DNA from: Candidatus Woesearchaeota archaeon
GTDB taxonomy: Archaea; Nanobdellota; Nanobdellia; Woesearchaeales; JBJKQO01
Assembly: GCA_046705145.1 (NCBI GenBank)
Contig: JBJKQO010000033.1
Span: 4,023-68,022, forward strand
Direction: 5' to 3'
DNA length: 64,000 nucleotides
The first letter of the stretch is position 1; the number at the start of each line of letters is the position of its first letter. Position numbers and translations under genes: made by a program. The notes below the pieces were generated by a model. That model was not told the origin of the DNA. It made no database searches and worked only from the letters and a program-made list of their open reading frames with translations. Positions 4,816-63,878 of this stretch are shown here, one piece after another.

Positions 4816-5044
4816 CTTTGTCCAAAGATTTATATATGAGTATTATAATACTAGTTCATACGGGAAAAGTGTCAGCCTGGTTTTCAGCCAGGTTATTTTC
4901 TTTATTTTTTGCAAAAAGAACTCATTAATAAGCCTATGCTGCTTTTTTTCGGAGGGTTTTCGATTACTCGTATAATATTAACAATATGGGTAATAATGAG
5001 TAAGGTGAGAAAACTTTAAATATCTTGCATTTTTATTATTATGT

Positions 5045-33896: not shown

Positions 33897-33983
33897 TTCG
33901 GATAATCCGGAATGTTTCCTTCTTATTCCAATTTATTACAATATTATCGGAATTTATATATTTAAAATTATCTGCATATAATT

Positions 33984-35467: not shown

Positions 35468-35543
35468 AACATTGTATTGACTCTAAAGTAGTGTCTTGAT
35501 TTTTCAAAATATTTAAATATATATCTGTATTTATTAGTAAAAA

Positions 35544-42076: not shown

Positions 42077-43087
42077 TCACTCAAATATTCCTGCTATCTT
42101 CTCGCCACAAGACTTACACTTTCCTTTCCTGATGTTGTTTTCAGAGACAAAGAAACCCTCTCTTGATATCAGCTCCTTGCCGCATCTAGGGCACAGTGTA
42201 GATCTCTTAAGATCAGTTGGAACATTTCCAGGATAGACATATCTTAATCCTGCTTCTTTTCCTAGCTTTTGCGCAAGCCTGATCTTTTCAATAGGGGTGG
42301 GGGGGACATCGCCATATTTGTAGTGCGGATAGAACCTTGATATGTGCCAGGGGATATTTTTGTCATTTCCTGCTATAAACTCAGCGATCTTCCTAAGCTC
42401 ATCTTCTGAATCGTTCTTTTCAGGTATGATAAGGGTAGTTATCTCAACCCATATGCCCATGTCATGCATCCTTTTGATATTCTCAAGGACCGGCTTAAGC
42501 CTTCCGCCTATCACTTTTTTGTAGAACCCATCATCAAACGATTTAAGATCGACATTTGCAGCATCAACAAGGCCTTCTGCAAGACCTAAAGCCTGTTCTG
42601 ACATGAAACCGTTTGTCACTATCACATTTCTTATGCCCTCTTTTTTTGCTATCCTAGCAATATCAAGCATATACTCCCAAAAGACTGTAGGCTCAGTATA
42701 AGTGTAAGATATGCTTTCACAGCCATTTTCAACTGCCTCTTTCACTGCTGCCTCGGGAGGTATATTATCCCCCCTTATGATTCTCCCTGAAGCCTGAGAG
42801 ATATCGCTGTTCTGGCAGAATTCACATGAAAAATTGCATCCTACTGTAGCGATTGAATAAGACCTTGATCCAGGAAGGAAATGATAGAGGGGTTTCTTCT
42901 CGATAGGGTCTATTGCTCTTGAGACTGGCTTGCCATAAACGAGGCTGTAGAGCCTTCCCCCTTTGTTTTCCCTGACTGAACACCTGCCTATTTTCCCTTC
43001 TGGGATAAGACAAAAATGGCTGCAAAGCTCGCATTGTACAGAACTATCATTCAATTTCTTATATAGTATTGCTTCTTTCATAAGCAT
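42077..43087 (-). CDS. AmmeMemoRadiSam system radical SAM enzyme
   Basis: CELCSHFCLIPEGKIGRCSVREN...YG...DPIEKKPLYHF...GCNFSCEFCQN fits the PflA-like family. Confidence 0.7.
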   Translation of the reverse strand: MLMKEAILYKKLNDSSVQCELCSHFCLIPEGKIGRCSVRENKGGRLYSLVYGKPVSRAIDPIEKKPLYHFLPGSRSYSIATVGCNFSCEFCQNSDISQASGRIIRGDNIPPEAAVKEAVENGCESISYTYTEPTVFWEYMLDIARIAKKEGIRNVIVTNGFMSEQALGLAEGLVDAANVDLKSFDDGFYKKVIGGRLKPVLENIKRMHDMGIWVEITTLIIPEKNDSEDELRKIAEFIAGNDKNIPWHISRFYPHYKYGDVPPTPIEKIRLAQKLGKEAGLRYVYPGNVPTDLKRSTLCPRCGKELISREGFFVSENNIRKGKCKSCGEKIAGIFE

Positions 43088-49041: not shown

Positions 49042-50088
49042 TTATTGGATCATTATTTCAATCCCATCCTGATGACGCTGAGGGTGATCATGTTTCACTC
49101 CCTTTTCATCTAATACTTTATAAGCCGGTTTAAGCAGGCCATCTAGAACAGATCCGATCTGGGCGGCAATACATTTCATATTTGCAAGAATTGTGGCTTT
49201 GTTTTTAGGTGATGAGTCCCTTAATGTATTTGCAGTTGAAAGATAGGTGGCATATAACCCCCACAGTTTTTCAAAACATGATGTATCAAGCTTAACTTCA
49301 ATTCTGGTTGGATCGGTATATATCTCATCAAGGTCATATCCTTGTTCAGGTCTTGCAAAACAGATTACTCTTCTGTTAGGCTCAACCCCATAAATATCCA
49401 TAACCCTCCTTTCTGAATCTGGATCAAATACCCTCAAGATGAATCTAGGTTGAGATCCTTCTTCAGCAGAATAAGACATTAGATATGTTGAGTTTAAGTT
49501 TCTTCTTATCATTTTTCCTCTTGTTACAAAGGGGTATGATATATGATGATCCTCTTTAGCCATTTTGTTTATTGCTCCTATCAAAGAGTCTAACATCTCT
49601 GAACCTGAATTCGCAATCACTATAGTGCCATCTAGTCTATGATATCCTATTAGATCTGGAGAAAGAAATTGACCTGTACTGATATCCACATTACAGGGAA
49701 CATCTTTAAAAGCTTCGGTGAGTTCATCGATTGTAGTTTCAGGACGCAGAAAAGACGCAGTAACAATGCCTGCATGAGAAGGATGTGTTCTTTGTTGCAC
49801 AATATAGGAACTTAGTTTTTCTGCGAGTCCGCCTTTAATATGAGATTTAGGCATCATATTTAGGAGGGAAGGATTTTTAAAATCAACATGCCAAACATCA
49901 ACAATTTCAGGATTGGGAGTGTCAACTAAAGGCAAACCATCTACCACCCTTACCTCCTGAATAATGTCTCCAAATTGATCCCAAAAGGTTCTAAAAACCC
50001 CATCTTCACACTTTAACAGTTTTCTCCTTAGTGTTGAATCATCAAAAAAAAATCCCGGCATGTATATTCTTGCTTGTCCTTCACTCAT
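49042..50088 (-). CDS. hypothetical protein (second gene of the cluster)
   Basis: 348 aa, no known motif. Confidence 0.4.
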   Translation of the reverse strand: MSEGQARIYMPGFFFDDSTLRRKLLKCEDGVFRTFWDQFGDIIQEVRVVDGLPLVDTPNPEIVDVWHVDFKNPSLLNMMPKSHIKGGLAEKLSSYIVQQRTHPSHAGIVTASFLRPETTIDELTEAFKDVPCNVDISTGQFLSPDLIGYHRLDGTIVIANSGSEMLDSLIGAINKMAKEDHHISYPFVTRGKMIRRNLNSTYLMSYSAEEGSQPRFILRVFDPDSERRVMDIYGVEPNRRVICFARPEQGYDLDEIYTDPTRIEVKLDTSCFEKLWGLYATYLSTANTLRDSSPKNKATILANMKCIAAQIGSVLDGLLKPAYKVLDEKGVKHDHPQRHQDGIEIMIQ

Positions 50089-50139
50089 GCTTATCCCCTC
50101 TCATAAGATATTTCTCTGAATGTGTCTCTTCTAACTAAT

Positions 50140-50706
50140 TTATCTGCCACATTTTGCTTCATCTAAAGTTATGGTTATAAGATTGGACTTTTGATTGTAG
50201 GGTAGATCAAGCGCTAGTACCGTAGGATGTATTCTTGAGTCAAATGCTTCAGCAATAAGCTGAGCTCCAGTATAAGGATCTAATTCTCCCTCTAGACCAA
50301 ACTCTCTTAATGCTTGATTTACTATAGCTGGGGAAGCAATGTAAATTTGTGCTTTTCTTGGTACAAACAAACTTCCGGGTTTTCTGACAATGGATTCTAT
50401 TTCAGAAGTCGCTAAATCGTTGGGTTTAGGCTTTGCAGTCACCAGCCCATTATAAACCGCCAATAAACACGCAAGATATTCCACAACTGCACCTTGACGA
50501 ACATTTAGTTCAGATCCTTCTTTTTCATAGGTAGTAGAGCATGTTTCGCAGTTGAACTCCAGAAGAGACAGACCCTGTATCAACCTTGTGCAACGTGCTA
50601 TCTCTAAAAATGTTTCACGCAATTCATCTTTAGGGATAGTAGTATCGGGTACTGCTATCATCCCAACATAAGCATTGATATTTGGCATTTCTGGTTCGCT
50701 CATTTT
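50140..50706 (-). CDS. hypothetical protein (first gene of the cluster)
   Basis: The likely start is MKMSEPEM at 50706. Confidence 0.4.
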   Translation of the reverse strand, partial: KMSEPEMPNINAYVGMIAVPDTTIPKDELRETFLEIARCTRLIQGLSLLEFNCETCSTTYEKEGSELNVRQGAVVEYLACLLAVYNGLVTAKPKPNDLATSEIESIVRKPGSLFVPRKAQIYIASPAIVNQALREFGLEGELDPYTGAQLIAEAFDSRIHPTVLALDLPYNQKSNLITITLDEAKCGR

Positions 50707-50820
50707 CATATCCCCCCAAAACCATTTCAAGATTATTATTTTAAAGTAGAAACACTTTTTCATATTTAAAGCCGCATTTGAAGATTTTTTGTAAAAAAGA
50801 ACTATTTAGGGGAGAAATAG

Positions 50821-51040
50821 GAATAACGCAAAGTCGCTAATTACCAATATGCTCGCCCTATCCCTTGCCTGAAGGTAGGGGTATTAGGGCTCGCACTAGT
50901 GTTAGCGACTTTGCGGAACAACAAAAATCGAAGATTTTTGTGTTCAATTAAAGCTTCGCTTTAATTTGAATAGGAAAGTCGAGCCTGTATCTACAACCTA
51001 AAGGAACTAGTATTAGGCTCGACTTTTCTATAAATCAAGA
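50821..51040. repeat. structured intergenic repeat, family A, copy 2
   Basis: The 5' module is closed by gtcgctaa...ttagcgac (compensatory relative to copy 1). The 3' hairpin aagtcgagcctgtatctacaacctaaaggaactagtattaggctcgactt is about 97% identical to copy 1. Confidence 0.6.
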
Positions 51041-51064
51041 AGATTTAAGTAAATTTAAATAGGA

Positions 51065-51718
51065 TCAGAGTCGATAACTCAATTCACACCAGTATGCAAT
51101 ATCTGCTAATGGCTTGATAACGGCGTTTATTCCGAATGTTTTAGCTATATTCTCCAGTTTGGTTATATTAAACTTTTCTGATTTCAGTCCAGCACTTAGT
51201 ACCCTGAAATTTTTATCACTACTGACAACTTCCATCCCATTAGCCTTGATGAAATCAACATATTCTCGCTCGCAAGAATCTGATAATACGCTTAAAATAA
51301 TCTTTCCAGAGGGATTAATCACCCTTAATGCTTCTGCCAAGATAGGATCCCTGTCGTCACCAAGGTTTGCAAAAAAGTTCCATAACATGACTACATAATC
51401 AAATGAACCATTGTCAAAAGGAAGGCTTAATGCGTTTCCACAAACATAATGGACAGATGGAATTTCATCTAAATTTTCTCTTGCCACAACCATCTTTTCA
51501 AGTAGGTAATCAACTCCTACTATCATATCTGGTGGATACGGGCATCCTAAGATGATGCCACCACTTCTTCCTGGCCCGCATCCCATGTCCAATACTTTCT
51601 TTCCTCTTAAATCATATGATTGTACGCGCTCTGCCTCAGCCCCTAAATACCTCTCAAATGGATGTGTCAAGATAAACTTCTCTTGGTCAGTACCCTGAAA
51701 AAATGATTTAATTGCCAT
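51065..51718 (-). CDS. class I SAM-dependent methyltransferase
   Basis: VLDMGCGPGRSGGII motif I. Confidence 0.7.
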   Translation of the reverse strand: MAIKSFFQGTDQEKFILTHPFERYLGAEAERVQSYDLRGKKVLDMGCGPGRSGGIILGCPYPPDMIVGVDYLLEKMVVARENLDEIPSVHYVCGNALSLPFDNGSFDYVVMLWNFFANLGDDRDPILAEALRVINPSGKIILSVLSDSCEREYVDFIKANGMEVVSSDKNFRVLSAGLKSEKFNITKLENIAKTFGINAVIKPLADIAYWCELSYRL

Positions 51719-52020
51719 TTAAAAGTGGTAAAATATGAAAAAATATTTAAAATATCCCCTTAATAAATTTGTAAAAAATCAAAAATTCAAGCTATTTTAG
51801 GAAAAATTGACACCATCATAGCAAGATCCTTAATGCAAAAACTCCAGAAAATAATTTAACCATTTCAAGCTTGTTTGATTTACTATTCCCCAAAATATAA
51901 GAAATCCCAATTTAATGTGATAGATCATACAAAACGCCTGAATAAATAAGGGGGACCAGCATATAATCTTCTTGGTCATATGTGTGCCCCACACTTGCCC
52001 CTTTGAAATCCCTGTTGACA

Positions 52021-52098
52021 CTATTCACAACGACATTCGCAATCTGCAGGGACCAACTCTTTTAGATCATATTGTTCCCTTGTTTTTTTCTTTTCCAT
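52021..52098 (-). CDS. micro-ORF P8 of the CECRxE family (MEKKKTREQYDLKELVPADCECRCE)
   Basis: 25 aa. GGAGGG Shine-Dalgarno sequence 6 nt upstream of ATG. The C-terminus DCECRCE-stop matches the family consensus. Confidence 0.4.
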   Translation of the reverse strand: MEKKKTREQYDLKELVPADCECRCE

Positions 52099-52647
52099 GA
52101 TTATCCCTCCTTGATTTTTATTAAAATCAGGATATTCCTATAATTATCCTATTTAGATAATAGTTTATTGAAATATTTAAAATAATATTATTAAAATTTT
52201 TGTACTTCCTAAAATATTTAACTAAATATTAAAAAAATTGAAATGAATCTAAAAAAAATATGGAAAAACTCAAAATATTGGTTATAAATTATAATATATA
52301 AAATATATTTCTCTCAATTTTTTTATAAAATCACTTATTAATAAATTTATAGGAAAAATACAAAATATATCTCAGTTTACACCCGTATATTTCACTAGTA
52401 ACTTTCAGCCTAAACATTAATCCATCCGAAAAAGAGAAAAGAAAAACCGAACCAAGCCCTGAGGGCAAGCATACTCGTTAACTTATTAGAAGGTTAAATA
52501 CATAAAATTATGTGTTTAATAAGTGTATTTTACTTTGCGAAAAGTAATGCTTTTATTATAAACAAGCAAACCCCTGGTTTGTACTATCTCTAGTTTAGTA
52601 ATTATGAGATTGAATTTTATTAAAATCCCACTATAACTTTGAAGGAT

Positions 52648-53514
52648 TTATTGTGCTGTAATCCTAGTTAATAAAACTGCTGAAACTAAGATTAAAATTA
52701 TTCCCCCTATCTGTAAAATATTAAATTTTTCATCTAAAACAAAGAATTCAAATAATGCGGTTATTGCAGGAACAGCAGATATCATTAAAGCAGCAATAGA
52801 CGGGCCCTCTAATTCAATTCCTTTGTAAAAAGTTATTACCCTCAATCCACTAAATATGCCTGAAAGTAATACCCATATAAAACCATATTTTATAGTAGAT
52901 AAACCCTCCATCCCTAAAAATGGGATTAAAAGCAGAAGAAATAATGCTCCAAATATATATCTTCCAACTACCATTGTCAAAGAATCCATCTTTTCCATGC
53001 CTTTTTTTGCATAAGAATTGCAGAACCCGCTTATAGGCACAGTCAGGAAAATAAGCCAATCTCCATTATTAGGCATCTGCATGAATCCTTTAGTTGTTAA
53101 CATAATCAAACCAAGTATCATCGTTACCATAACAGGATAAAAAATTTTAGGCATCTTTTCTCCCATAATTGAATATGCAAAAATAAGTGTAAACACAGGA
53201 TATAAACTCATAATAGCCCCTTTATTTGTTGCAGTAGTGTATTTTAATGCAGATATCATCAACACAACTCCTAATCCTGAAGCAAGTACACCTATAACTG
53301 CTATATACTTCACATGTTTCATATCAAATCTCAATGATGATTTTTTCCCTAAAGCTAGCCATACTGCCACAACAAAACATAAACTGAAAAATACTCTTAA
53401 GAACGAAAAGAGTGAAGGATCCACCCCTTTGCCTATACCAATTTTATCAAAGAGGTTAACAGAAGCAAAAGCAAAAATAGATATTAATAGATAGACTATT
53501 CCTTTTGTTTTCAT
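52648..53514 (-). CDS. EamA/DMT superfamily transporter
   Basis: Ten predicted TM helices arranged as two EamA-like repeats. Confidence 0.65.
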   Translation of the reverse strand: MKTKGIVYLLISIFAFASVNLFDKIGIGKGVDPSLFSFLRVFFSLCFVVAVWLALGKKSSLRFDMKHVKYIAVIGVLASGLGVVLMISALKYTTATNKGAIMSLYPVFTLIFAYSIMGEKMPKIFYPVMVTMILGLIMLTTKGFMQMPNNGDWLIFLTVPISGFCNSYAKKGMEKMDSLTMVVGRYIFGALFLLLLIPFLGMEGLSTIKYGFIWVLLSGIFSGLRVITFYKGIELEGPSIAALMISAVPAITALFEFFVLDEKFNILQIGGIILILVSAVLLTRITAQ

Positions 53515-53592
53515 TTTATTCAGGTTAAGGTTTATTACTTTTAGCTTAGTGAAGAGATAAGCTAGCCAAACAAAATTTATTAAGACAATAAC

Positions 53593-55641
53593 TCAACTGC
53601 ACAACCCATATTTCTTGCATGCAGTGTAGATACTTCCGACGGTGGACTCTGCCTCTGTTAAGGTTGAAAAATTTTTATCTCCTTTGAACAAAGAATATAA
53701 TTTTTCTGATATCTGCCCGAGAGAATAATACCCTTTAAAGAAGATAAGAAACTCAAAAAACTCTTTTGGAAGGTCTCTGAAAAAACAGGTATTTACCTTT
53801 ATAGCTTCACTTTTGTTTGGGGCATAAACATATCGATTTTCTTTTCCATTATAAAAAAGCATGATCTCCTTTTTTCTACTTGGATGGGCAGTTTTTTCTT
53901 TGTATTTCTCTTCTTTAGCATAAGAGATTGACGGACTCCCAAAAGAATCCACTAACCCCTCATCTTTTAGCTTCTGGATACAACGATCAACTTCAAGGTC
54001 AACAATCTCTTTATTACCATATAATCTTAGCAGTTTTTCTTTTATTTCACTTAATTCATAAGCCCCATCAAGATAATGTGCTATATCCGCCCTTAATGAC
54101 CTTATTAAAACCTTATCATCAACATCCGACGGCAGACTACCTAAAATTTCAATTGCATTGAGAATACTTTTTGGGTCGTTAAAAAAAGGGCTGTCACTAA
54201 CTGCTTGTTCCTGAAGCCCTACATCTCTCTGCCCCCTACCAAACTCTGTGCTTGGATATGCCAGGATCAGATAGCACATCGCTCTTAGCGCCCTTTCATT
54301 ATCCCACCCATACTTCCTGCAATCCTGCCTGAAATCAAGCTGGTTTAAAGTCCCTCTCATTATGATGCCTGTTTCTTCCCTCTCCTTAAACCTTTCTTGA
54401 GTGGGTATGATGTCTCTGCTAAGCGCTGGCTGGATGATAAAATCATGATTTTTTGATCCGATATCATTTAGCAGACAAAAGGTCTTCCTGCTTGATCTTG
54501 CCGATGATCCCGGATAACCCTCAATAAGGAAAAGCCTGCATGATATCCCTTCATTACCGATTATGTTCAGCGCATTGGCAGCCTTGTTTTCCGTACCTAT
54601 CTTATTCATGTTTTCAAGCACTACATCGTCGCTGCACTCAACTCCTATCCCTACCTCCTGACATCCTGCCTTTGCAAGGTACTCTGCAAACCTTTTTGTT
54701 ACCCTGTCAGACCGGGTATAGCACCTGAACCCGAATTCAGGATAGTCTTTTTTAAAAATTGAGACTTCAGAAAGAAAATCTTCTGTTTTCCCCATATTTA
54801 TCCCAAACGTTAGGTCTATTATATAGAATTTAGGAATACCCATGCTAAACATGTAACGGATCTCATTTAGAGTATTGCCAAAATCCCTTTCAACGTATGT
54901 TTTCTTTGCTGCACAAAACTCACACTGAAACGGGCATCCTTTAGCCAGCTCAACAAGTCCTAAAACGAACATATTTTTAGTTGAGCAATGTTCAATAATA
55001 TCCTTTATCAGGCCTGTCCTCTTGCCATATATCTGCTCAGGAGCCAAGTTGATTACTTCCTGTTTTTTTACTATTTCATTAACCTTAACTCCCTGTTTAT
55101 CCCTTAATAGTAAGCCTGGCATGGCTAGATCCTTTTTTCCTGCCTTTAAAGCATTTATAAAACCTGCCAGGTGATGATTTGATTCCCCTATCCAGGCATA
55201 GTCTATATTAGGGCAAAACTTGAAAATTCTATCCCTTAAATGAGTTATTGCCTGACCCCCAACGATTATCCTGCAATTTGGAAGCTTTTCCTTTATCTTA
55301 GTTGTCAAAAAATCTATGCTGTCTGTGTTTGCCTGCGCGATCAGGGTAGTCATCACAATATCAGGGCGCTCTTTCGCAATAAGGTCTATCAGTTCCATAT
55401 TTGACATTGAAGGATCTTTAAACCATTCATAATCAAGCAGTAGTAGATCAGATTGGATACCATAATGGTCAAGTATTGCTGTCACCTCAAATGGTATCCT
55501 TGGGAGAATGAAGTATCTATTTCCGATATTCTCTTTGACGTACCTGCCCTTTTCAGTGTGTTCAAGGGAGGTAGTGTTTGGCGGGTTTACAAAGATGACC
55601 TTCATTTTATCCTCTTGTATCATGATACCTACACATATCAC
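53593..55641 (-). CDS. B12-binding domain radical SAM protein (class B) with a ~250-aa C-terminal extension
   Basis: The N-terminal Rossmann-like region (MKVIFVNPP...IIVGGQAITH) resembles a cobalamin-binding domain. Radical SAM motif GCPFQCEFC. The likely start is 55605. Confidence 0.7.
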   Translation of the reverse strand: MICVGIMIQEDKMKVIFVNPPNTTSLEHTEKGRYVKENIGNRYFILPRIPFEVTAILDHYGIQSDLLLLDYEWFKDPSMSNMELIDLIAKERPDIVMTTLIAQANTDSIDFLTTKIKEKLPNCRIIVGGQAITHLRDRIFKFCPNIDYAWIGESNHHLAGFINALKAGKKDLAMPGLLLRDKQGVKVNEIVKKQEVINLAPEQIYGKRTGLIKDIIEHCSTKNMFVLGLVELAKGCPFQCEFCAAKKTYVERDFGNTLNEIRYMFSMGIPKFYIIDLTFGINMGKTEDFLSEVSIFKKDYPEFGFRCYTRSDRVTKRFAEYLAKAGCQEVGIGVECSDDVVLENMNKIGTENKAANALNIIGNEGISCRLFLIEGYPGSSARSSRKTFCLLNDIGSKNHDFIIQPALSRDIIPTQERFKEREETGIIMRGTLNQLDFRQDCRKYGWDNERALRAMCYLILAYPSTEFGRGQRDVGLQEQAVSDSPFFNDPKSILNAIEILGSLPSDVDDKVLIRSLRADIAHYLDGAYELSEIKEKLLRLYGNKEIVDLEVDRCIQKLKDEGLVDSFGSPSISYAKEEKYKEKTAHPSRKKEIMLFYNGKENRYVYAPNKSEAIKVNTCFFRDLPKEFFEFLIFFKGYYSLGQISEKLYSLFKGDKNFSTLTEAESTVGSIYTACKKYGLCS

Positions 55642-55726
55642 ACGAAATATTCATCCTACAGAAATCACCCCTTCTGAATCAAAAAAAATCCAAATTCAAT
55701 CAAACAATTTCGTTCATCATCTGATC

Positions 55727-55792
55727 CTACTCACATTTAGTCTCAAAATCAAACGATGCAATCTTCAAAATGCACCATTCATTATTACCCAT
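55727..55792 (-). CDS. micro-ORF P1 (MGNNEWCILKIASFDFETKCE), a truncated family member
   Basis: Shares NEWCIL-IAS with P2. A TAG replaces the Cys codon of the CEC motif. Its ATG lies 1 nt after the P2 stop. Confidence 0.3.
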   Translation of the reverse strand: MGNNEWCILKIASFDFETKCE

Positions 55793-55793
55793 A

Positions 55794-55862
55794 TTATTCC
55801 ATCCTGCACTCACAATTAAGCGATGCTATCCCTAAAATACACCATTCATTAATATTAACCAT
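55794..55862 (-). CDS. micro-ORF P2 (MVNINEWCILGIASLNCECRME)
   Basis: 22 aa with the conserved C-terminus NCECRME-stop. Tightly packed with P3 and P1 through GAATAAtATGG junctions. Confidence 0.4.
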   Translation of the reverse strand: MVNINEWCILGIASLNCECRME

Positions 55863-55863
55863 A

Positions 55864-55923
55864 TTATTCAATCCTGCACTCGCAATTGATTGTTTCAAGT
55901 TTTAACAGTTTTATTTCATCCAT
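55864..55923 (-). CDS. micro-ORF P3 (MDEIKLLKLETINCECRIE)
   Basis: 19 aa. GAGGTGG Shine-Dalgarno sequence 5 nt upstream. Conserved NCECRIE-stop. Confidence 0.4.
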   Translation of the reverse strand: MDEIKLLKLETINCECRIE

Positions 55924-55973
55924 TATTCCACCTCGGATATATTGGATTGTCAAAGACTCTATAGTCTTGTTTC

Positions 55974-56027
55974 TCATTCGAGCCTGCATTCACAGATGAC
56001 ATCTATTTTAGTTAGAGTTTGTTCCAT
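55974..56027 (-). CDS. micro-ORF P4 (MEQTLTKIDVICECRLE)
   Basis: 17 aa. AGGAG Shine-Dalgarno sequence 4 nt upstream. Conserved ICECRLE-stop. A hairpin aagactctatagtctt follows downstream. Confidence 0.4.
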   Translation of the reverse strand: MEQTLTKIDVICECRLE

Positions 56028-56156
56028 AGTCTCCTACCTCAACAGTATAGTTGCATTTAGATAGTCCTATAAGTGAATGATATATAATAAACTTGTTCCA
56101 TAAATTTTTGTAAAAACGCAAAATTTATATATCGAATAGGAATATCTTATATAATA

Positions 56157-57164
56157 ATGGCAGATCTAGATAAGATTGATATTAAACTACTGGCAATCCT
56201 GGAAGAAGATGGCAGACAATCCTTATCGCAGATAGCAAAAAAGCTCAATACTTCTCAACAGGTTGTCAGCTACAGGATCAAATCTCTTGAAAAAAGGAAT
56301 ATCATAGGAGGATATTATACATTCATAAATTTTCTAAGGCTAGGCTATACCAGTTTCAGGACGATGATATCATTCAGCAACATAAATAAAACCAAACATA
56401 AGGAGATCATCTCTTTTCTTATGGATCATCCGAACGTCCTTTGGCTTGTTGACTGCAGCGGAAGGTGGGACCTGATAATTAACTTTCTGGCAAAAAACAT
56501 CATCCAGTACGAATCGATGTTCAATGAGTTCAGAAAAATGTTTCCAGACCAGATCCAAAACTATGACATACTCCCAACAGTTGAAGTGTCTTATTTCGGA
56601 AGAGATTACATAATGAAAAAACATAGGGACCTCAGAAAGAGTTCACTTCTCGGAAAAGAGTACGGGACAGACAGCCTGGACTTACTAAACTATAACATCC
56701 TTAAGATGATCTCAAAAAATGCAAGAATCCCTGCAGTTGAGATAGCAAATAAGCTTAAAGTTAGCCCTAACACTGTAATCCTTCGGCTTAATGAGCTAAA
56801 AAGAACCGGCATGATACAAGGTTATACCACGCTACTTCATCTGGATTATACAGGTTATAGCAGTTACAAGGCATTAATAAAGATATTTAATACGACCGAA
56901 GAAAAGGAAAATGCAATAATCAATAACCTGAGGTCTAACGTGAATGTAGTTGGATTCGTGAAACTTGTAGGATCCTGGAACTTTGAGATAGAATTTGAAG
57001 TAGAAACAAATGAGCAGATGATTGAACTCACAAGAGATATTAGAGACCGGTTCAGGGACAATATCAAGGAATTTGAGATAATCCAACTGCTTCACGAGTA
57101 TAAGTATGACTTCTTTCCTGGAGACCTGCTGGAAGACAACCCTAAAAAAAGCAATAAAAAATAA
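56157..57164 (+). CDS. double-domain Lrp/AsnC-like regulator, array paralog 1
   Basis: DIKLLAILEEDGRQSLSQIAKKLNTSQQVVSYRIKSL and NILKMISKNARIPAVEIANKLKVSPNTVILRLNEL HTHs, each followed by a RAM-like domain. C-terminus LHEYKYDFFPGDLLE. Confidence 0.65.
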   Translation: MADLDKIDIKLLAILEEDGRQSLSQIAKKLNTSQQVVSYRIKSLEKRNIIGGYYTFINFLRLGYTSFRTMISFSNINKTKHKEIISFLMDHPNVLWLVDCSGRWDLIINFLAKNIIQYESMFNEFRKMFPDQIQNYDILPTVEVSYFGRDYIMKKHRDLRKSSLLGKEYGTDSLDLLNYNILKMISKNARIPAVEIANKLKVSPNTVILRLNELKRTGMIQGYTTLLHLDYTGYSSYKALIKIFNTTEEKENAIINNLRSNVNVVGFVKLVGSWNFEIEFEVETNEQMIELTRDIRDRFRDNIKEFEIIQLLHEYKYDFFPGDLLEDNPKKSNKK

Positions 57165-57174
57165 CAAGGATCAA

Positions 57175-57243
57175 TCATTCAACCCTGCATTCACAATTAT
57201 CAGTTTCGACAGGTTTTAACTCATAATAGTGTTCTTCGACCAT
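57175..57243 (-). CDS. micro-ORF P5 (MVEEHYYELKPVETDNCECRVE)
   Basis: 22 aa. GGAGGG Shine-Dalgarno sequence 8 nt upstream. Divergent from Lrp paralog 2; its stop lies 10 nt past the stop of paralog 1. Confidence 0.45.
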   Translation of the reverse strand: MVEEHYYELKPVETDNCECRVE

Positions 57244-57357
57244 TTTAGTTCCCTCCTAAGTTATAATAATGTATAACTTCGAGATTAATTAAAGTATACG
57301 CCATATTTTTTTGTTAAATCGAAATATTTATATATAATTATTATATACCACAAAAAT

Positions 57358-58365
57358 ATGGTAATACTTGATAAAACCGATTTAAAGTTATTGTCGGAAT
57401 TAGATGATGATGCAAGACAGACCGTTTCAAAGATAGCAAAAACCCTAAACACCTCACAACAGGTCATCAGTTTCCGAATTAACTCCCTAAAGAGGAAAGA
57501 GATCATAAGCGAATACTACTCAATAATTAATTTTACAAAGCTGGGTTACACAAGTTACAGGACAATGATACGCTTCAGCAACATAAACAAGCAAAAACAC
57601 CAAGAGATCATAAAATATTTAACAGATCATCCAAACGTGCTATGGCTCGTCGACTGTGGTGGAAGATGGGATCTCCTCGTTAACTTTTTGGCAAAAGATA
57701 TAAAACAATACAGCATCATGTTCAATTCTTTTAAGAGCAGATTCCCGCAGCAGATAAGAAATTATGATGTCTTGACCACAATCGATTTTGTCTATCCTGG
57801 AAGAGCCTATTTATTTGGGCGAAAACCTGATAAGCCTAACAGGCCTTATGTAGGGATAGAAAGAGAGAAAGTAACCCTAGACAACACAGACTTAAACATC
57901 CTAAAAATGATATCTGAGGATGCGAGGCTAAGTAGTGTGATAATAGGCAATCACTTGGGGATAAGCTCTAATACTGTTATGACCCGGATAAAAGAGATGG
58001 GGAAAAAAGGGGTTCTTCTTGGAGCAAAGCCCCTAATCCATCTCGAAAACACCCCTTACAGGGGATATAAGGCACTTATTAAGTTTCAGGACATAACAGA
58101 AGAAAAAGAAAAAAGCATCATAAGCTTCCTGATGGAATTCGAGAATATAGTCGGCATAATAAGGATGGTGGGGATGTGGGATTTTGAGTTAGAGATCGAG
58201 TCAGAAAAACAGGAGGATGTGGTCGATATGATGAGATCCCTTCGGGACAGGTTCCATGATGTGATAAAAGAGTTTGAGATGTTCCCTTTGTTTCACGAAT
58301 ATAAGTACAACTTCTTTCCCAGAGATCTGCTGGAAGAGCATTCTGGCGAAAATATAACAAAGTAA
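57358..58365 (+). CDS. double-domain Lrp/AsnC-like regulator, array paralog 2
   Basis: Same architecture as paralog 1, about 50% identical. C-terminus FHEYKYNFFPRDLLE. Confidence 0.65.
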   Translation: MVILDKTDLKLLSELDDDARQTVSKIAKTLNTSQQVISFRINSLKRKEIISEYYSIINFTKLGYTSYRTMIRFSNINKQKHQEIIKYLTDHPNVLWLVDCGGRWDLLVNFLAKDIKQYSIMFNSFKSRFPQQIRNYDVLTTIDFVYPGRAYLFGRKPDKPNRPYVGIEREKVTLDNTDLNILKMISEDARLSSVIIGNHLGISSNTVMTRIKEMGKKGVLLGAKPLIHLENTPYRGYKALIKFQDITEEKEKSIISFLMEFENIVGIIRMVGMWDFELEIESEKQEDVVDMMRSLRDRFHDVIKEFEMFPLFHEYKYNFFPRDLLEEHSGENITK

Positions 58366-58443
58366 CAAAAATAATAAGCCCTGATGTTTCTATCCGGGTT
58401 ATTGCGCAAAATATAATTCGTGTTCAAGCTGATTTAGGCAATA

Positions 58444-58512
58444 TCACTCCATCCTAGCTTCGCAATCATCAGGGTCTAATTCTTCCAATTTGAATTTTGT
58501 TTCTTCCTCCAT
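58444..58512 (-). CDS. micro-ORF P6 (MEEETKFKLEELDPDDCEARME)
   Basis: 22 aa. GGAGGT Shine-Dalgarno sequence 6 nt upstream. Variant C-terminus DCEARME-stop. Confidence 0.4.
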   Translation of the reverse strand: MEEETKFKLEELDPDDCEARME

Positions 58513-58637
58513 TTTATACCTCCAAGCAGGTTATACTGCTCATAGTATATAGTGACATGAAAAATAATAAAACCTGTATGTTATAATATTTGTAAAATAG
58601 GAAAATTTATATAATAAAAGAAAATATAACAAAAATT

Positions 58638-59636
58638 ATGAAAAAAATTGATAAGATAGATCTCAAGATCATGTCTGCTTTAGACGATGATGCACATTGT
58701 TCGCTGTCTAGGTTAGCTAAAAAATTACAAACCTCCCAACAGGTCATAAGCTTTAGGCTGCAGTCCCTTAAAAAAAGGGGCATAATCAGCTCATTCTTTA
58801 CAGTTATTGATTTTACAAAGTTGGGATATACCAATTACAGGACAATGATCCGCTTTAGTAATATTGATGAAAAACGACATAAAGAAATAATTTATTTCCT
58901 AAGGGATCATCCCAGTGTGCTTTGGATCGTTGACTGCAGCGGAAGGTGGGACATTATAGTAAACTTTATGGCAAAGGACATAAGAAGGTATAACCTAATC
59001 ATAAGGGAATTTATCAATAGGTTTCCTGACCAGATCCAAAACTATGATGTTCTCACGACAGTTGAGCTATTGTATTTCAAAAGGGATTACTTTGACAAGA
59101 ATCATAGAAAAATAGATATCCTGCCCTATTTTGCTGATAACACTGAAATAATGAGTTTGGATGATATGAATATCAAAATCCTTGACCTTATATCAGAAGA
59201 TGCTAGACTTAGCTCAGTCGTAATAGCAAATAAGCTAAAACTAACTCCAAAGACCGTCCTTGCCAGGATAAAAGAGATGAAAAAAGAAGGTATCATCTGG
59301 GGATTTAAGCCGCTTATACATCTCGAAAACACCCCTTACCGCAGCTTTAAGGCTTTTGTGAAATTCCAAAACATAACTGAACAAAAAGAAAAACAGATCA
59401 TAGCCTTTTTTTCAGATAAGGCTAATGTGGTAGGTGTGATCCGTATGATAGGTCTTTGGGATTTTGAGGTGGAAATCGAGTCAGAAAGCCAGGAATATGT
59501 GATAAAACTCACAAGGGATTTCAGGGATAGATTTAAAGACATAATCAAAGAATTTGAGATAGTCCCCCTATTTCATGAGTACAAGTATAACTTCTTCCCA
59601 AGAGAACTAGTTAAAAAGAATGATACAAATACATAG
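58638..59636 (+). CDS. double-domain Lrp/AsnC-like regulator, array paralog 3
   Basis: Same architecture. C-terminus FHEYKYNFFPRELVK. Confidence 0.65.
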   Translation: MKKIDKIDLKIMSALDDDAHCSLSRLAKKLQTSQQVISFRLQSLKKRGIISSFFTVIDFTKLGYTNYRTMIRFSNIDEKRHKEIIYFLRDHPSVLWIVDCSGRWDIIVNFMAKDIRRYNLIIREFINRFPDQIQNYDVLTTVELLYFKRDYFDKNHRKIDILPYFADNTEIMSLDDMNIKILDLISEDARLSSVVIANKLKLTPKTVLARIKEMKKEGIIWGFKPLIHLENTPYRSFKAFVKFQNITEQKEKQIIAFFSDKANVVGVIRMIGLWDFEVEIESESQEYVIKLTRDFRDRFKDIIKEFEIVPLFHEYKYNFFPRELVKKNDTNT

Positions 59637-59642
59637 TCTCAT

Positions 59643-59705
59643 TTTATTCTGCCCTAGTCTCACAGGCATCAGGTTCTATTTTTTCGAATTCTTTGTTTTT
59701 TATCA
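59643..59705 (-). CDS. micro-ORF P7 (MIKNKEFEKIEPDACETRAE)
   Basis: 20 aa. GGAGGT Shine-Dalgarno sequence 7 nt upstream. Variant C-terminus ACETRAE-stop. Confidence 0.4.
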
Positions 59706-59826
59706 TTTTATAACCTCCTTATACATCTTCATCATAGTAAGTACTTTCAAAATTTATATAATTAATCACCATAATATTTTGTAAAATAACAAAATTTATA
59801 TAATATATCATCATAACACAATAAAT

Positions 59827-60822
59827 ATGACTAAAATGGATAAGTTTGATATGAAACTGCTTGCAGTGCTTGAGGAGGATGCAAGGCAAACCTCATCAAA
59901 AATAGCCAAAAGATTAAACACGTCACAACAGGTAGTCAGTTACAGGATCAAATCTCTGGAAAAAAGGAAGGTCATCATAGGATATTATCCTATCATTAAC
60001 ATCACAAAATTGGGTTACACAAGTTACAGGACAATGTTTCGGTTGAATGACACTGACAAGAAGACCCATTCAGAGATTGTCAAATACCTGAAAGAGAATT
60101 CCAATGTTTTGTGGTTTGTTGACTGCGGCGGAAGATGGGACCTAATAGTCAATTTTATAGCAAGGAATATCCTCCATTATAGCGCCCTATTAAGAGATTT
60201 CAGAAATTCCTTTAAGGGCCTGGTACAAAACCCTGATGTTCTTACGACTATTGAAATGATCCATCTGGGAAGAGAATACCTTACCAAAAAAAAGAGAGAA
60301 ATCATGGAACCCCCTCATTTCGGAAGAGAAGAAGAAAAAATTCTGCCTGACTTGACTAACCTGAAAATACTCAAAATCCTCTCAAAAGACGCCAGAACTA
60401 ATTCGGTACAGATTTCACAGGAACTAGGGATAAGGCCGAGTACAGTTATGCTAAGGATAAAAGACATGAAAAAGTCTGGAATTATCCAAGGGTTTAGGGC
60501 GCAGCTCAACTTAGAAAATACACCTTACAAAGGGTATAAGGCAGTCGTGAAATTCCAGAACATAACTGAAGAAGTAGAGCATGATATCATAGGTTACCTA
60601 AATCAGGACGTAAGGGTTTACGCAATAATAAGGATTATAGGCCTCTGGGACTTTGAGATAGAATTTGAGGTCGAGAATAATGAGCAGATGCTTGAGCTGA
60701 CAAGGTCTTTTAGGGACAAGTTCAAGGAACATATCAAAGAATTTGAGGTAATACCCCTATTCCATGAGTACCGCTACAACTTCTTTCCTGGAGACCTGCT
60801 GGAAAACAACGCAAAACTATAA
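59827..60822 (+). CDS. double-domain Lrp/AsnC-like regulator, array paralog 4
   Basis: Same architecture. C-terminus FHEYRYNFFPGDLLE. Confidence 0.65.
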   Translation: MTKMDKFDMKLLAVLEEDARQTSSKIAKRLNTSQQVVSYRIKSLEKRKVIIGYYPIINITKLGYTSYRTMFRLNDTDKKTHSEIVKYLKENSNVLWFVDCGGRWDLIVNFIARNILHYSALLRDFRNSFKGLVQNPDVLTTIEMIHLGREYLTKKKREIMEPPHFGREEEKILPDLTNLKILKILSKDARTNSVQISQELGIRPSTVMLRIKDMKKSGIIQGFRAQLNLENTPYKGYKAVVKFQNITEEVEHDIIGYLNQDVRVYAIIRIIGLWDFEIEFEVENNEQMLELTRSFRDKFKEHIKEFEVIPLFHEYRYNFFPGDLLENNAKL

Positions 60823-60848
60823 AAATCGAATCAACTTCTCTTTTTTGG

Positions 60849-60959
60849 ATGGACAACAAACCTGACGAATGGATCGATATGACAAAAGACCTTGAAAAGG
60901 GTTATTCTGAAGATCTTGACGAAGAAGAGGAATCAGAGACCTTTGAAGAAGAGGAATGA
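60849..60959 (+). CDS. small acidic ORF (MDNKPDEWIDMTKDLEKGYSEDLDEEEESETFEEEE), tentative
   Basis: 36 aa directly after the last Lrp paralog. No Shine-Dalgarno sequence. Could be spurious. Confidence 0.2.
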   Translation: MDNKPDEWIDMTKDLEKGYSEDLDEEEESETFEEEE

Positions 60960-60962
60960 ATC

Positions 60963-61220
60963 CTATTTCTCCTTTATCATCCTACCTATCCTGCGCTTGT
61001 GGGCATCAGCAGATTCTATCCTGGATATCTCGTGGATAACCTTTATAACAGCGACAAGGGAAAGCGCCATCAAAAACAGCGCCTGAGCTTTCGCAGGAAA
61101 ACCGATGTCAAAAAGCGCCTTACCTGTACTATAGCCATACAAAGAGCTAATAAAAACTGCAGAGAATACGACCAAAAGAGCCATAAGGGCATATAGTGCT
61201 TTCTTCCTGTACCGGTCCAT
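60963..61220 (-). CDS. small membrane protein (2 TM helices)
   Basis: LYALMALLVVFSAVFISSLY and AQALFLMALSLVAVIKVI hydrophobic helices. Confidence 0.4.
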   Translation of the reverse strand: MDRYRKKALYALMALLVVFSAVFISSLYGYSTGKALFDIGFPAKAQALFLMALSLVAVIKVIHEISRIESADAHKRRIGRMIKEK

Positions 61221-61275
61221 GCCATGCAGGATATTTTTGATGTTTATAAGGTTTGTTCTTAAAGAGAAGATTCAA

Positions 61276-61482
61276 TTATCCCTGCTTAGATTTTTCCATA
61301 GGTTTATTGGGATAATCAAGTATAGTCTTAAACTTTGATGTGTCTATCCCCCCCTTAGAAAGAAGCGCTAAAAGCCCTTCTTTTTCTGAATCTAAGCATG
61401 TTTCTGCATAATTCTTGTTCCTAAATGAAGCAATCTCCCTACCCCCACATGCTTGAGCAACTGGTACCCCTTTTATCAACAC
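61276..61482 (-). CDS. small hypothetical protein (possibly longer with a non-ATG start)
   Basis: The reading frame stays open upstream to about 61596 with no in-frame ATG, so a GTG/TTG start is possible. Confidence 0.3.
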   Translation of the reverse strand: MLIKGVPVAQACGGREIASFRNKNYAETCLDSEKEGLLALLSKGGIDTSKFKTILDYPNKPMEKSKQG

Positions 61483-61812
61483 AGATTTTCCACCTTCAAA
61501 AGTGATCCTTGCTTCAACAAAAGCTTCATTTACACGTCCATGACATTCAAAATGATAATCTAACTCTATTGATATAATTGAACTTTCAACTAAATAGCCA
61601 TTTAATTCACGTACCCCCTATCAAAATCGTTATTTGCTTTAATCCTTTCTGATATAGTGTTTGAGTATGATGGAGATGATACGAAATATTCTATCGAAGG
61701 CATATATCCAGGATATTTTCAATCTTTATAAGGTTTTTGTGACGAAGATAGTTGGATAAAGTATATAAATGAAAATCCAGCTAGTTCTGAATAGAAGGTG
61801 AATTAGCCCAAA

Positions 61813-62832
61813 GTGAATGATCCTGAATCAATCAGCAAGATAGTGCAATCAGTAAATAACCTTAGAACGACATTTCATCTTCTTAATCCTGGTCAGGAAG
61901 TCGTTCTCCCTGTCGGATTGTGCGAGTTAGGCACAAATACAATTGTTCTGATTGATATCCTTAAAAGACTCGACCTCGACCCGCCTTTACGCATAACCCC
62001 TTTTGTAGTACATCAAAACCCTGATGGAGATCCTAGTTTTCAGGATGTCAGAAACTACCTCTCGCAATTAGTAGGCACATCTCATGCGAGAGGGTTTGAT
62101 ATCAGCTCAAGATGCCCTCCACTTAATCCAGCCTATTGGGGAAATGCAAGAGAAGATATTTCTAAGATGATTGATCTTGAAGGCAACCCTGGATCACAGG
62201 ATGAAGTAGGGATATGCAGATTATGTACCCAAGCAAGAGAAAATGTTTTGAGTACTGTGCTCCCAAGAGAACAAAAGCCCATTTTGGTTTCTGGAGACAC
62301 GATGACTCATATAATATCATCTCTTCTCGAGCATTACTGGGCAAAACTGTACCATAAGGAATATGGGGATAACTCTTATGACACAAACCAAATAAGAGGA
62401 TTTATATCAAGCCAGAATCTTGACCTAAATGATGTCGTAAGAGAACTCAAAGAAGGGGCTATAAGGACTGATCTTGAAGTTTTTGAGATGATCCCAGCAA
62501 GATTTAGAGGAAAATTAAGTGTCATCAGGCCTTTTGGCTTTGCCACTCAAAATAAAATTGATGAGGCCTATCCTACAATCATGCCTATATACCAAAACTG
62601 CCCATATGGTGGGCCTAAACAGACGTATAGGCTTATCGTGCTAGAAGACTTGTTGGATCGTCTAAAAACTGACCCTCAGATCGAGAAGATGCTTATGAAT
62701 GAGCTTGTAACTCTATTTTCTGCTCCTTCTCTAGCTGACAGGCCCGGAGGTTACCTCCCTATAATGAAGTTTCGTAAAGCTAATTATCCTTGTAGGATAG
62801 GGGTTAATAGCATATTAAATACTACCATATAG
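61813..62832 (+). CDS. hypothetical protein
   Basis: 339 aa with no known motif. Immediately upstream of the HDAC-family gene. Confidence 0.4.
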   Translation: MNDPESISKIVQSVNNLRTTFHLLNPGQEVVLPVGLCELGTNTIVLIDILKRLDLDPPLRITPFVVHQNPDGDPSFQDVRNYLSQLVGTSHARGFDISSRCPPLNPAYWGNAREDISKMIDLEGNPGSQDEVGICRLCTQARENVLSTVLPREQKPILVSGDTMTHIISSLLEHYWAKLYHKEYGDNSYDTNQIRGFISSQNLDLNDVVRELKEGAIRTDLEVFEMIPARFRGKLSVIRPFGFATQNKIDEAYPTIMPIYQNCPYGGPKQTYRLIVLEDLLDRLKTDPQIEKMLMNELVTLFSAPSLADRPGGYLPIMKFRKANYPCRIGVNSILNTTI

Positions 62833-62876: not shown

Positions 62877-63878
62877 TTGTGTGATAATATGCGAATAATT
62901 GATAATATGCTAATAATATATGCCCCATATCATAGACTCCATAAACCTACAAAAGAGATTCATAATGGAACCCCTCAGGATCATGGAGACCAGCCTGGCA
63001 GGATAGAAGCTATAGTTTCTGCTCTTAAACTCGAAGGCCATGAGATAATAGAGGAAACCTTGGATAAGACCGGACAAATAAAAGCTGTCCATTCTCCTGA
63101 ATATGTTGATTTCCTCTTAAGGCTAAAAAAGGAACCCTGGTCTGGAAGGGGATTTAACCATGATGATCTAAAAAACAGGATGACTCCTTTTTCATCAGGT
63201 GCTGCTATCGCTGCCATCGCCTCTGCATCAGCAGCGATAAAAGGTGCAGAAGAAGCTTTCTTAGGTAGAGATTGCTTTGTCCTGACAAGACCTCCAGGAC
63301 ACCATGCAGGATATGATTATGCCCAGGGCATATGCTACCTTAACAATGCAGCGATCGCTGCATATTTCATTGCAGGGTTAGGGGAGTTAGGGTTTAGCGT
63401 CGCAATACTTGATTTTGATATACATCACGGAAACGGGACCCAGGAACTTGTGGCTAGGGCAATGCTAAATAAGAATATAAGATATGTGTCTGTCCATGGG
63501 GATCCTGACAACCCCAGATTATACGTGCCAAACAGAGAGATAGTAAAAGATTATGTTCCAGAAAGGATACTAAATCTGCCAGTACCCGGCTTATCTAGTA
63601 ATGATGAGTACCTAAGAATATTTCAAAGAGCTATCGATTTTTGTTCTGACGCACAATACCTTGTTATTTCAGCAGGATTTGATATCTCCTCTCAAGACCG
63701 CCACTCCGTATTCAGTCTTGAACAAAGCATATTTGCTGAGATGGGAAGGATGCTTGGGGGACTATCTCAAAGAAAGCTCATATTGCTGGAAGGAGGATAT
63801 TATGGCAGAGAAGAAAAGTATGCTCCTCTCGCAAAAGATGTTAATAGTTTTATTATAGGTCTTGAGAACAAAGTGTAA
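62877..63878 (+). CDS. histone deacetylase / acetoin-utilization AcuC / acetylpolyamine amidohydrolase family protein
   Basis: Arginase/deacetylase-fold motifs TRPPGHHA, DFDIHHGNGTQ and ISAGFD. Confidence 0.75.
   Translation: MCDNMRIIDNMLIIYAPYHRLHKPTKEIHNGTPQDHGDQPGRIEAIVSALKLEGHEIIEETLDKTGQIKAVHSPEYVDFLLRLKKEPWSGRGFNHDDLKNRMTPFSSGAAIAAIASASAAIKGAEEAFLGRDCFVLTRPPGHHAGYDYAQGICYLNNAAIAAYFIAGLGELGFSVAILDFDIHHGNGTQELVARAMLNKNIRYVSVHGDPDNPRLYVPNREIVKDYVPERILNLPVPGLSSNDEYLRIFQRAIDFCSDAQYLVISAGFDISSQDRHSVFSLEQSIFAEMGRMLGGLSQRKLILLEGGYYGREEKYAPLAKDVNSFIIGLENKV

Follow-up and report, generated by a model that had tools for sequence, protein, structure and literature searches.

The peptides called RiPPs (ribosomally synthesized, then post-translationally modified) are made by ribosomes and then modified by enzymes. 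In RiPP clusters with class B radical S-adenosylmethionine (SAM) enzymes, such as the proteusin/polytheonamide C-methyltransferases, short precursor genes stand immediately upstream of the gene for a B12-binding radical SAM enzyme, and several precursor variants per cluster combine a conserved leader motif with a variable core. A similar organization, with a putative leader motif, was found in the 64,000-nucleotide stretch of DNA from Candidatus Woesearchaeota archaeon analyzed here (hereafter, the window), which encodes a family of micro-peptides, a radical SAM enzyme whose fold is closest to TsrM, CysS and TokK, and four double Lrp/AsnC proteins. In kind, this is a radical SAM cluster, RiPP-like and equipped with an Lrp-type regulator, and we favor, with moderate confidence, a reading in which Lrp-type regulators control the precursor promoters. 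Unlike in the described clusters, the precursors are extremely short (17-25 amino acids, aa, in the window) and end in a C-E-x-x-x-E core, the enzyme, which occurs in DPANN archaea only and falls into no curated family, carries a unique C-terminal extension of ~280 aa, and the module lacks a protease, a conserved exporter and other tailoring genes. DPANN archaea are ultra-small, live mostly as symbionts, have reduced genomes and are for the most part uncultured, and to our knowledge almost nothing is known about the molecules they use towards hosts or competitors.

Archaeal Lrp/AsnC regulators (feast/famine regulatory proteins, e.g., Ss-LrpB, LysM and Ptr2) resemble the window proteins in combining an HTH_AsnC domain with a ligand-binding domain, in their autoregulatory position at their own promoter and in being divergent from a target gene. 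An A/T-centred imperfect palindrome is also common to both, TTGTAAAAACGCAA here, where binding is predicted, and the Ss-LrpB box TTGCAAAATTTGCAA (PMC1802622). In contrast to those regulators, two complete Lrp units are fused in one chain here, the candidate operator is asymmetric in that only one of its two half-sites varies, four tandem paralogs each have their own micro-ORF (open reading frame), and the double Lrp family is DPANN-centred and usually faces a hypervariable gene. The siroheme decarboxylases NirDL/AhbAB share the double Lrp-like fold, and the fold only (NirDL is the only solved fused double Lrp-like fold that we know of): identity is 13-14%, family scores are sub-threshold, there is no heme-pathway context here, and both the DNA box and the helix-turn-helix (HTH) domains are conserved, arguing for DNA binding. 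PqqA, the precursor of pyrroloquinoline quinone (PQQ), and MftA, the precursor of mycofactocin, belong to pathways (PqqA/PqqE/PqqD and MftA/MftC/MftB) that likewise pair a tiny precursor having few conserved C-terminal-side residues with a radical SAM enzyme and a winged-helix partner; here, however, the enzyme is class B without SPASM, the partner is an Lrp protein rather than PqqD, and the core positions between the conserved residues are hypervariable. The archaeal B12 radical SAM methylases MgmA/QCMT and Mmp10 differ in acting on folded methyl-coenzyme M reductase rather than on micro-peptides, share ~18% identity with the window enzyme and lack the C-terminal extension.

Micro-peptide genes facing fused Lrp genes

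The window holds eight peptide genes, P0 to P7, and four fused double Lrp genes, in which HTH domains alternate with Lrp/AsnC ligand-binding (RAM) domains.

52021-52098, minus strand: P0, MEKKKTREQYDLKELVPADCECRCE, ends CECRCE; Shine-Dalgarno sequence aaGGAGGg; no adjacent regulator gene
55727-55792, minus strand: P1, MGNNEWCILKIASFDFETKCE, ends FETKCE; Glu -5, Lys -3 and Glu -1 kept, Phe at -6
55794-55862, minus strand: P2, MVNINEWCILGIASLNCECRME, ends CECRME
55864-55923, minus strand: P3, MDEIKLLKLETINCECRIE, ends CECRIE
55974-56027, minus strand: P4, MEQTLTKIDVICECRLE, 17 aa, ends CECRLE; divergent from Lrp1
56157-57164, plus strand: Lrp1, fused double Lrp/AsnC protein, HTH-RAM-HTH-RAM, 335 aa
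57175-57243, minus strand: P5, MVEEHYYELKPVETDNCECRVE, 22 aa, ends CECRVE; faces Lrp2
57358-58365, plus strand: Lrp2, fused double Lrp/AsnC protein, 335 aa
58444-58512, minus strand: P6, MEEETKFKLEELDPDDCEARME, 22 aa, ends CEARME; faces Lrp3
58638-59636, plus strand: Lrp3, fused double Lrp/AsnC protein, 332 aa
59644-59706, minus strand: P7, MIKNKEFEKIEPDACETRAE, 20 aa, ends CETRAE; faces Lrp4
59827-60822, plus strand: Lrp4, fused double Lrp/AsnC protein, 331 aa

A degenerate coding pattern for C-E-x-R-x-E-stop, TGYGARNNNMGNNNNGARTRR, matched seven times in the window, where shuffled sequences predict 0.01 matches, and all seven lie on the minus strand from 52021 to 59664. The micro-ORFs are thus far beyond chance, and the observation of an earlier note, made from the letters of this DNA, is confirmed. 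That note had placed a divergent minus-strand micro-ORF opposite each of four consecutive ~335-aa double-domain Lrp/AsnC paralogs separated by 190-270-bp spacers. Each of the four is present with its C-E-x-R-x-E-stop end, the paralogs measure 331-335 aa and the spacers 193, 272 and 190 bp, and the predicted GGAGG-like Shine-Dalgarno sequences were recovered ahead of P4, P5, P6 and P7. The peptide length of 20-22 aa proposed for the spacer ORFs fits P5, P6 and P7, and of the proposed 95-130-bp spacing between start codons only the upper end was found (129, 114, 125 and 120 nucleotides (nt) from P4/Lrp1 to P7/Lrp4). The four cassettes stand, as part of a family of eight in which four further members had been overlooked. 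The CEC motif, on the other hand, is not what the peptides share: the second Cys is not family-wide, and the conserved residues are Cys -6, Glu -5 and Glu -1.

The earlier note had also asked for codon-level conservation to be separated from conservation of a DNA motif. Among the eight window copies, only third codon positions vary at the conserved residues (Glu -5, GAA 4 / GAG 4; Glu -1, GAA 6 / GAG 2; Cys -6, TGT 4 / TGC 3), Arg -3 is encoded six times by AGG and once by CGT, and the stop codons are TAA 3 / TGA 3 / TAG 2. A wider set of 28 non-redundant family peptides from the window and eight other loci gave the same picture (Cys, TGT 15 / TGC 8; Glu -5, GAA 20 / GAG 5; Glu -1, GAA 18 / GAG 10; stops, TAA 15 / TGA 7 / TAG 6). 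Given this synonymous and stop-codon variation, selection acts on the peptide and not on the DNA. The CEC-coding DNA (tcctgcaYtcRcaatt), which had been offered as an Lrp operator, is rejected as such because it varies synonymously; it is also absent from relatives.

There is next to no chance that the micro-ORFs are not genes and that the repeated motif is an operator or repeat element of the DNA, open by chance. The ORFs are very short (17-25 aa) and most are missed by gene callers, which is what such an element would have in its favor, but codon positions 1 and 2 are fixed while position 3 and the stops vary, Arg is encoded by CGT as well as AGG, the amino-acid pattern is kept in relatives with unrelated DNA, Shine-Dalgarno sequences are present, the 13 loci agree in strand and in position with respect to the enzyme, and regulation is accounted for by a separate conserved non-coding box. 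We regard this alternative as effectively refuted already.

An attenuator or upstream-ORF role was ruled out, as each micro-ORF diverges from the regulator and converges with the gene before it. An NCBIfam scan of ten peptides (E <= 10) returned no family, and an Rfam scan of 51500-61500 (E <= 0.1) no match. Ahead of P0, a degenerate box-like sequence, TTTTTGTACTTCCTAAAATATTTA, occurs on the plus strand (window 52100-52250) with no regulator gene or remnant after it; tblastn detected no Lrp gene remnant near P0.

The radical SAM enzyme and its loci in DPANN archaea

The genes P4-P3-P2-P1 are arranged head to tail (55727-56027), with P4 as the first gene of a minus-strand run that leads into a radical SAM gene and then an EamA gene.

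53593-55605, minus strand: class B (B12-binding) radical SAM enzyme, 670 aa from the ATG at 55605
52648-53514, minus strand: EamA/DMT-family transporter, 288 aa (PF00892, E = 3.6e-39)

The radical SAM protein has an N-terminal, Rossmann-type B12-binding domain and a Radical_SAM domain (Pfam; the latter PF04055, E = 2.5e-13), and its CxxxCxxC motif (C236/C240/C243) is invariant in 24 sequences. The closest folds are those of TsrM, CysS, MgmA, AprD4 and TokK. No SPASM domain was matched in Pfam or NCBIfam, which rules out membership in the sactipeptide, ranthipeptide or SCIFF classes, and the C-terminal extension has no Cys-rich auxiliary-cluster motif. No curated NCBIfam model came near its cutoff, the best being the PhpK family (89 bits versus 600). 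The extension (~280 aa) is family-specific and contains two helical subdomains homologous to each other (hhalign 90%), and its last subdomain (residues 594-677) has a beta3-alpha3 topology. It was searched with Pfam as 14, then 8 fragments, and with PDB profiles; there were no PDB sequence matches, and a PqqD match appeared in one of eight enzyme homologs below threshold (Pfam, E = 0.084). With this single sub-threshold match and the homologous subdomains, recognition of the leader by the extension may be taken as a lead, not as a result. A second, unrelated radical SAM protein (42077-43087, minus strand, 336 aa; PF04055, E = 3.6e-27) is encoded ~10 kb from the cluster.

We found ~30 relatives of the enzyme in 5.8 billion clustered proteins, all of them from DPANN metagenome-assembled genomes. 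An exhaustive profile search of 1.84 billion representative proteins returned about five full-length 50%-identity clusters and fragments; all matches below ~245 bits concern the generic class B core only. The system is restricted to DPANN archaea. Twelve further enzyme loci had enough flanking sequence for comparison (L001, L003, L004, L009, L017, L018, L024, L066, L069, L070, L071 and L072), and one divergent double Lrp gene adjoins the enzyme in 13/13 distinct loci, counting the window. In the 12 other loci it is a single gene 300-500 bp upstream of the enzyme, and no further neighbor of the enzyme is conserved.

The gap between the enzyme and Lrp genes contains one to five small ORFs on the enzyme's strand at every enzyme locus, for example MEKEYFTLEKVSTQNCEFMGE and MKEYFELTKVILNCEANWE, or peptides with the C-terminal parts ...RYFTLSKMRTYDCELKVE, ...PYFALKSIDTKKREANVE and ...LEKVCLDSASCRFE. 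Short co-oriented precursor genes thus adjoin the gene for the candidate modifying enzyme in the window (P4-P1) and in the 12 other loci. Across 39 peptides, Glu -1 is present in all 39, Glu -5 in 35 and Cys -6 in 31, and positions -2 to -4 are hypervariable. About 27 of the 39 carry an aromatic-aromatic-x-Leu leader motif ~14-17 residues from the end, usually with Leu at -14 and the aromatic residue two positions before it, at -16. Over the 631 kb of DNA that was fetched, short [C/Y/R]ExxxE-stop ORFs were found only in these gaps, bar one stray match. That the peptides track a cobalamin-type radical SAM enzyme in 13/13 loci makes them RiPP-like precursors. The EamA gene, whose product is a possible exporter, is absent from the other radical SAM loci and specific to the window.

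Several loci have features of their own. L068 encodes a truncated enzyme homolog (3516-5470, 489 aa) without the B12 domain, peptides or an adjacent regulator; a 154-aa membrane-like ORF precedes it and a double Lrp-like gene lies ~3 kb downstream. In L069 (1-1100, 5490-7016), the double Lrp gene directly adjoins a gene for a phage-type integrase, and the enzyme has an AAA_25 gene downstream of it, which hints that the module may sit on a mobile element. An ORF in L017 (9755-9937, minus strand; MENRYFVLENIPIDECIWNKGGNTMKELIKNEKNESYFELETVTINGCECKIE) apparently holds two fused peptide units, as though the first had lost its stop codon. In L003/L023 (Aenigmatarchaeota), the peptides have Arg, not Cys, at -6 and leaders of ~50 aa, and the box ahead of the regulator is apparently inverted (ctttgtaataacgaaa on the opposite strand).

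Double Lrp regulators and their upstream box

Pfam assigns to Lrp1-4 two HTH_AsnC/HTH_24 domains and two ligand-binding domains, both kinds occurring twice per chain. An AlphaFold2 model of Lrp1 (predicted local distance difference test score, pLDDT, 88) showed the same HTH-RAM-HTH-RAM order, and each half superposes (Foldseek) on the archaeal Lrp regulators PH0061 (template modelling score, TM, 0.86), FL11 and LrpA (TM 0.8-0.87). Identity of the halves to DNA-binding Lrp proteins is 22-29% with TM up to 0.87. The best full-length structural match in Foldseek, and the only one, is the fused Lrp-like enzyme NirDL (4ch7; TM 0.59-0.63, 13-14% identity), and the halves share 13-15% identity with NirDL or AhbAB. 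The NCBIfam AhbA/AhbB models gave 22-32 bits, below their cutoffs of 125-140, and no heme-pathway genes were found in any locus examined (the window and the fetched loci).

Lrp1-4 are 50-57% identical to one another and 60-66% identical to their best family members elsewhere; the duplications thus either lie far back or preceded a rapid divergence. Tandem arrays of close double-Lrp paralogs, and peptides outside the regulator-enzyme gap, occur in none of the other fetched loci, so the four-fold cassette is peculiar to the window genome. A second Lrp cluster lies at 33408-36500, with two distant double Lrp-like genes (33984-35000 and 35544-36500, plus strand; 21-28% identical to Lrp1-4) along with two ORFs the size of a single Lrp (33408-33896 and 34997-35467, minus strand); no C-E-x-R-x-E micro-ORFs were found near it.

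Ahead of each window paralog lies a box joined to a TATA element:

56108-56129, plus strand: box and TATA ahead of Lrp1, TTGTAAAAACGCAAAATTTATA, candidate operator
57311-57332, plus strand: box and TATA ahead of Lrp2, TTGTTAAATCGAAATATTTATA
58590-58611, plus strand: box and TATA ahead of Lrp3, TTGTAAAATAGGAAAATTTATA
59779-59800, plus strand: box and TATA ahead of Lrp4, TTGTAAAATAACAAAATTTATA

This box, TTGTAAAAACGCAATATTTATA, was found ~47-49 nt before the regulator ATG in nearly all DPANN family members, enzyme present or not; the window has four copies and one weak match versus 0.06 expected. Its core, TTGTA-N4-CGCAA, is a 14-bp imperfect palindrome, a candidate site whose spacing to the ATG stays constant across about 30 loci, and the box resembles the Ss-LrpB consensus given above. 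It sits between two back-to-back TATA boxes, the regulator's own abutting it and the opposing, peptide-side TATA just beyond. The box TTGTAAAAACGCAATATTTATA is a better candidate operator than the CEC-coding DNA, and control of the adjacent peptide promoter by the regulator, as the earlier note had suggested, is plausible given such a candidate Lrp-type box between back-to-back TATA boxes. The TATA-to-ATG distance implies that the regulator mRNA would be leaderless or near-leaderless; the peptide mRNAs probably carry Shine-Dalgarno leaders. A bacterial promoter and terminator scan stayed at background level, as expected for an archaeon.

Neither the recognition helix of the first HTH domain (HTH1; TSQQV) nor the first half-site (TTGTA) differs among Lrp1-4. 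The recognition helix of the second HTH domain (HTH2) varies (SPNTVILR / SSNTVMTR / TPKTVLAR / RPSTVMLR), and so does the second half-site (CGCAA / CGAAA / AGGAA / AACAA). At family-conserved positions, substitutions among the paralogs are enriched about two-fold in the HTH2 region (25/104 vs 51/404, p = 0.005). This pattern fits a divergence of regulator-operator pairs that would insulate the four cassettes, of which there are four copies only.

The double Lrp family has > 190 members, far more than the enzyme family. Counting only loci with enough upstream sequence, > 10 DPANN loci have the regulator and box without a radical SAM gene and without an E...E peptide (L006/L007, L008, L015, L016, L019, L021, L025, L028, L029, L031, L034, L036 and L037); an ORF of 139-309 aa starts 100-200 nt from the regulator ATG instead. 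Pfam matched none of eight such divergent cargo genes, and these genes show next to no similarity between loci, only those of L006 and L015 being related (33% identity). A neighbor-joining tree of the double Lrp proteins is star-like with enzyme-linked and enzyme-free members interleaved, and thus has no clade structure to interpret. At the family level, the idea that these Lrp regulators are dedicated to individual peptides does not survive this distribution: Lrp proteins without such peptides occur in related genomes, indicating that the regulator family is a general module and not intrinsically peptide-dedicated. More broadly, a conserved regulator-plus-box (promoter) module appears to drive hypervariable cargo across DPANN genomes, and peptide precursors would be one type of it.

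A cluster model and its alternatives

Beside the gene content, peptide-level conservation, three-way co-occurrence and conserved box that we observed, the favored model makes proposals on DNA binding, the direction of regulation, the enzyme-substrate relation, chemistry and export. Eight short genes encode the peptides, each with a short leader and a C-terminal hexapeptide core, [C]-E-x-[R/K]-x-E, and the single class B radical SAM enzyme would modify this hexapeptide. The chemistry would most likely be methyl transfer to an unactivated carbon in the core, or else another radical transformation; C-methylation is the most likely modification by analogy with the closest folds. The two homologous subdomains of the extension may recognise the leader, and the product may leave via the neighboring EamA transporter in this genome. 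Lrp1-4 would be covalently fused Lrp pseudo-dimers that act as transcription regulators, each binding the 14-bp palindrome (TTGTA-N4-CGCAA and variants) between two back-to-back promoters. Lrp1 is predicted to control its own gene and the P4-P3-P2-P1-rSAM-EamA run, and Lrp2, Lrp3 and Lrp4 to control P5, P6 and P7, respectively, each plus its own gene.

Several points weigh against this model. The enzyme-substrate link would follow from co-occurrence alone, no recognised RiPP recognition element exceeded any threshold in the extension (Pfam fragments, PDB profile searches), and no protease or conserved exporter was found at the module loci, the EamA gene being unique to the window. The chemistry does not follow from the class B fold; AprD4, OxsB and BchE are relatives that do not methylate. 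The co-variation of HTH2 and box concerns four paralogs, and phylogeny confounds it across the wider family. In addition, regulator identity at radical SAM loci is ~52-64%, compared with 38-50% for the enzyme, and such conservation, with presence in every enzyme locus, is not what pathway-specific regulators usually show and would allow for a direct part in handling the peptides. In that case, the double Lrp protein would be a partner of the enzyme (for leader recognition or as a chaperone) or a NirDL-like enzyme, and not (only) a transcription factor, with each window paralog matched to its own precursor. We hold this to be unlikely. Its adjacency in 13/13 enzyme loci as the only other conserved gene, its conservation above that of the enzyme, its duplication together with the peptide gene in the window, NirDL as the best full-length structural match (TM 0.59-0.63) and the lack of a validated recognition element in the enzyme all point that way; the same family and box nevertheless occur in > 10 DPANN loci without peptides and enzyme, the halves are closer to DNA-binding Lrp (22-29%) than to NirDL/AhbAB (13-15%; AhbA ~30 bits vs 140), an invariant HTH1 recognition helix accompanies an invariant DNA half-site, no heme or siroheme genes lie nearby, and a 280-aa extension with PqqD-like sequence features is part of the enzyme itself.

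That the peptides, raw or matured, are effectors of the double Lrp proteins in an auto-inducing, quorum-like circuit with four channels is quite improbable, as most family members have no peptide partner, paralog-specific substitutions amount to ~12-13% in the ligand-binding domains versus 24% in the HTH2 region, and four pairs give no statistical power. The idea draws on the one peptide gene per paralog with diverged cores (CECRLE, CECRVE, CEARME and CETRAE), on paralogs that are only 50-57% identical and on the binding of small ligands such as amino acids by Lrp ligand-binding domains, and it is compatible with the favored model as an added layer. We give similarly little credence to each fused Lrp being the receptor for its own radical-SAM-matured peptide, in four parallel insulated channels of a DPANN symbiont; if true, this would be the first peptide-based signalling or recognition system described in DPANN archaea. 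Very unlikely, in our view, is a function of the peptides as sacrificial precursors of a small molecule or cofactor, as PqqA and MftA are, with Cys/Glu...Glu supplying atoms of the product. In line with such a function, conservation in the core is limited to three positions (Cys -6, Glu -5 and the C-terminal Glu -1), the precursors are encoded in several copies, small metabolites are what EamA transporters typically export and the three-gene module has neither protease nor conserved exporter; yet the enzyme is class B and not of the SPASM type of PqqE/MftC, with no SPASM or PqqD match over threshold, positions -2 to -4 are hypervariable as in RiPP libraries, and the other genes needed by known cofactor systems are absent.

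No curated protein family, RNA family or publication describing the module was found in the databases and literature searched. Apparently new are the precursor family, the enzyme subfamily bearing the C-terminal extension, the fused regulator and its asymmetric box, and the four-fold peptide-regulator cassette. The system forms a compact, conserved module of three parts, the C-E-x-x-x-E peptides, the rare cobalamin-type radical SAM enzyme and the fused double Lrp regulator. It is a testable candidate for a new peptide modification, and its precursor signature can be mined in other genomes. It also offers a candidate operator for an archaeal regulator family of > 190 members, and its paralogous regulator/operator/peptide triplets are a natural case for studying the divergence of regulatory specificity.

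Downstream of Lrp4, the window encodes a 36-aa very acidic ORF (60849-60959, plus strand; ...EEEESETFEEEE), a 339-aa protein (61813-62832, plus strand) with no Pfam or NCBIfam match and a histone-deacetylase-family protein (62877-63878, plus strand); none of the three is conserved beside the module at other loci. A tRNA scan detected no tRNA. The thermosome encoded in the window shares 72-81% identity with proteins named from Woesearchaeota and Nanoarchaeota, in keeping with a DPANN archaeon of that type. The G+C content is 0.353 over 51900-60900 versus 0.417 over 1-50000, ranging from 0.30 to 0.39 per 2 kb in 50000-61000, and this low G+C content of the cluster region may indicate horizontal acquisition.

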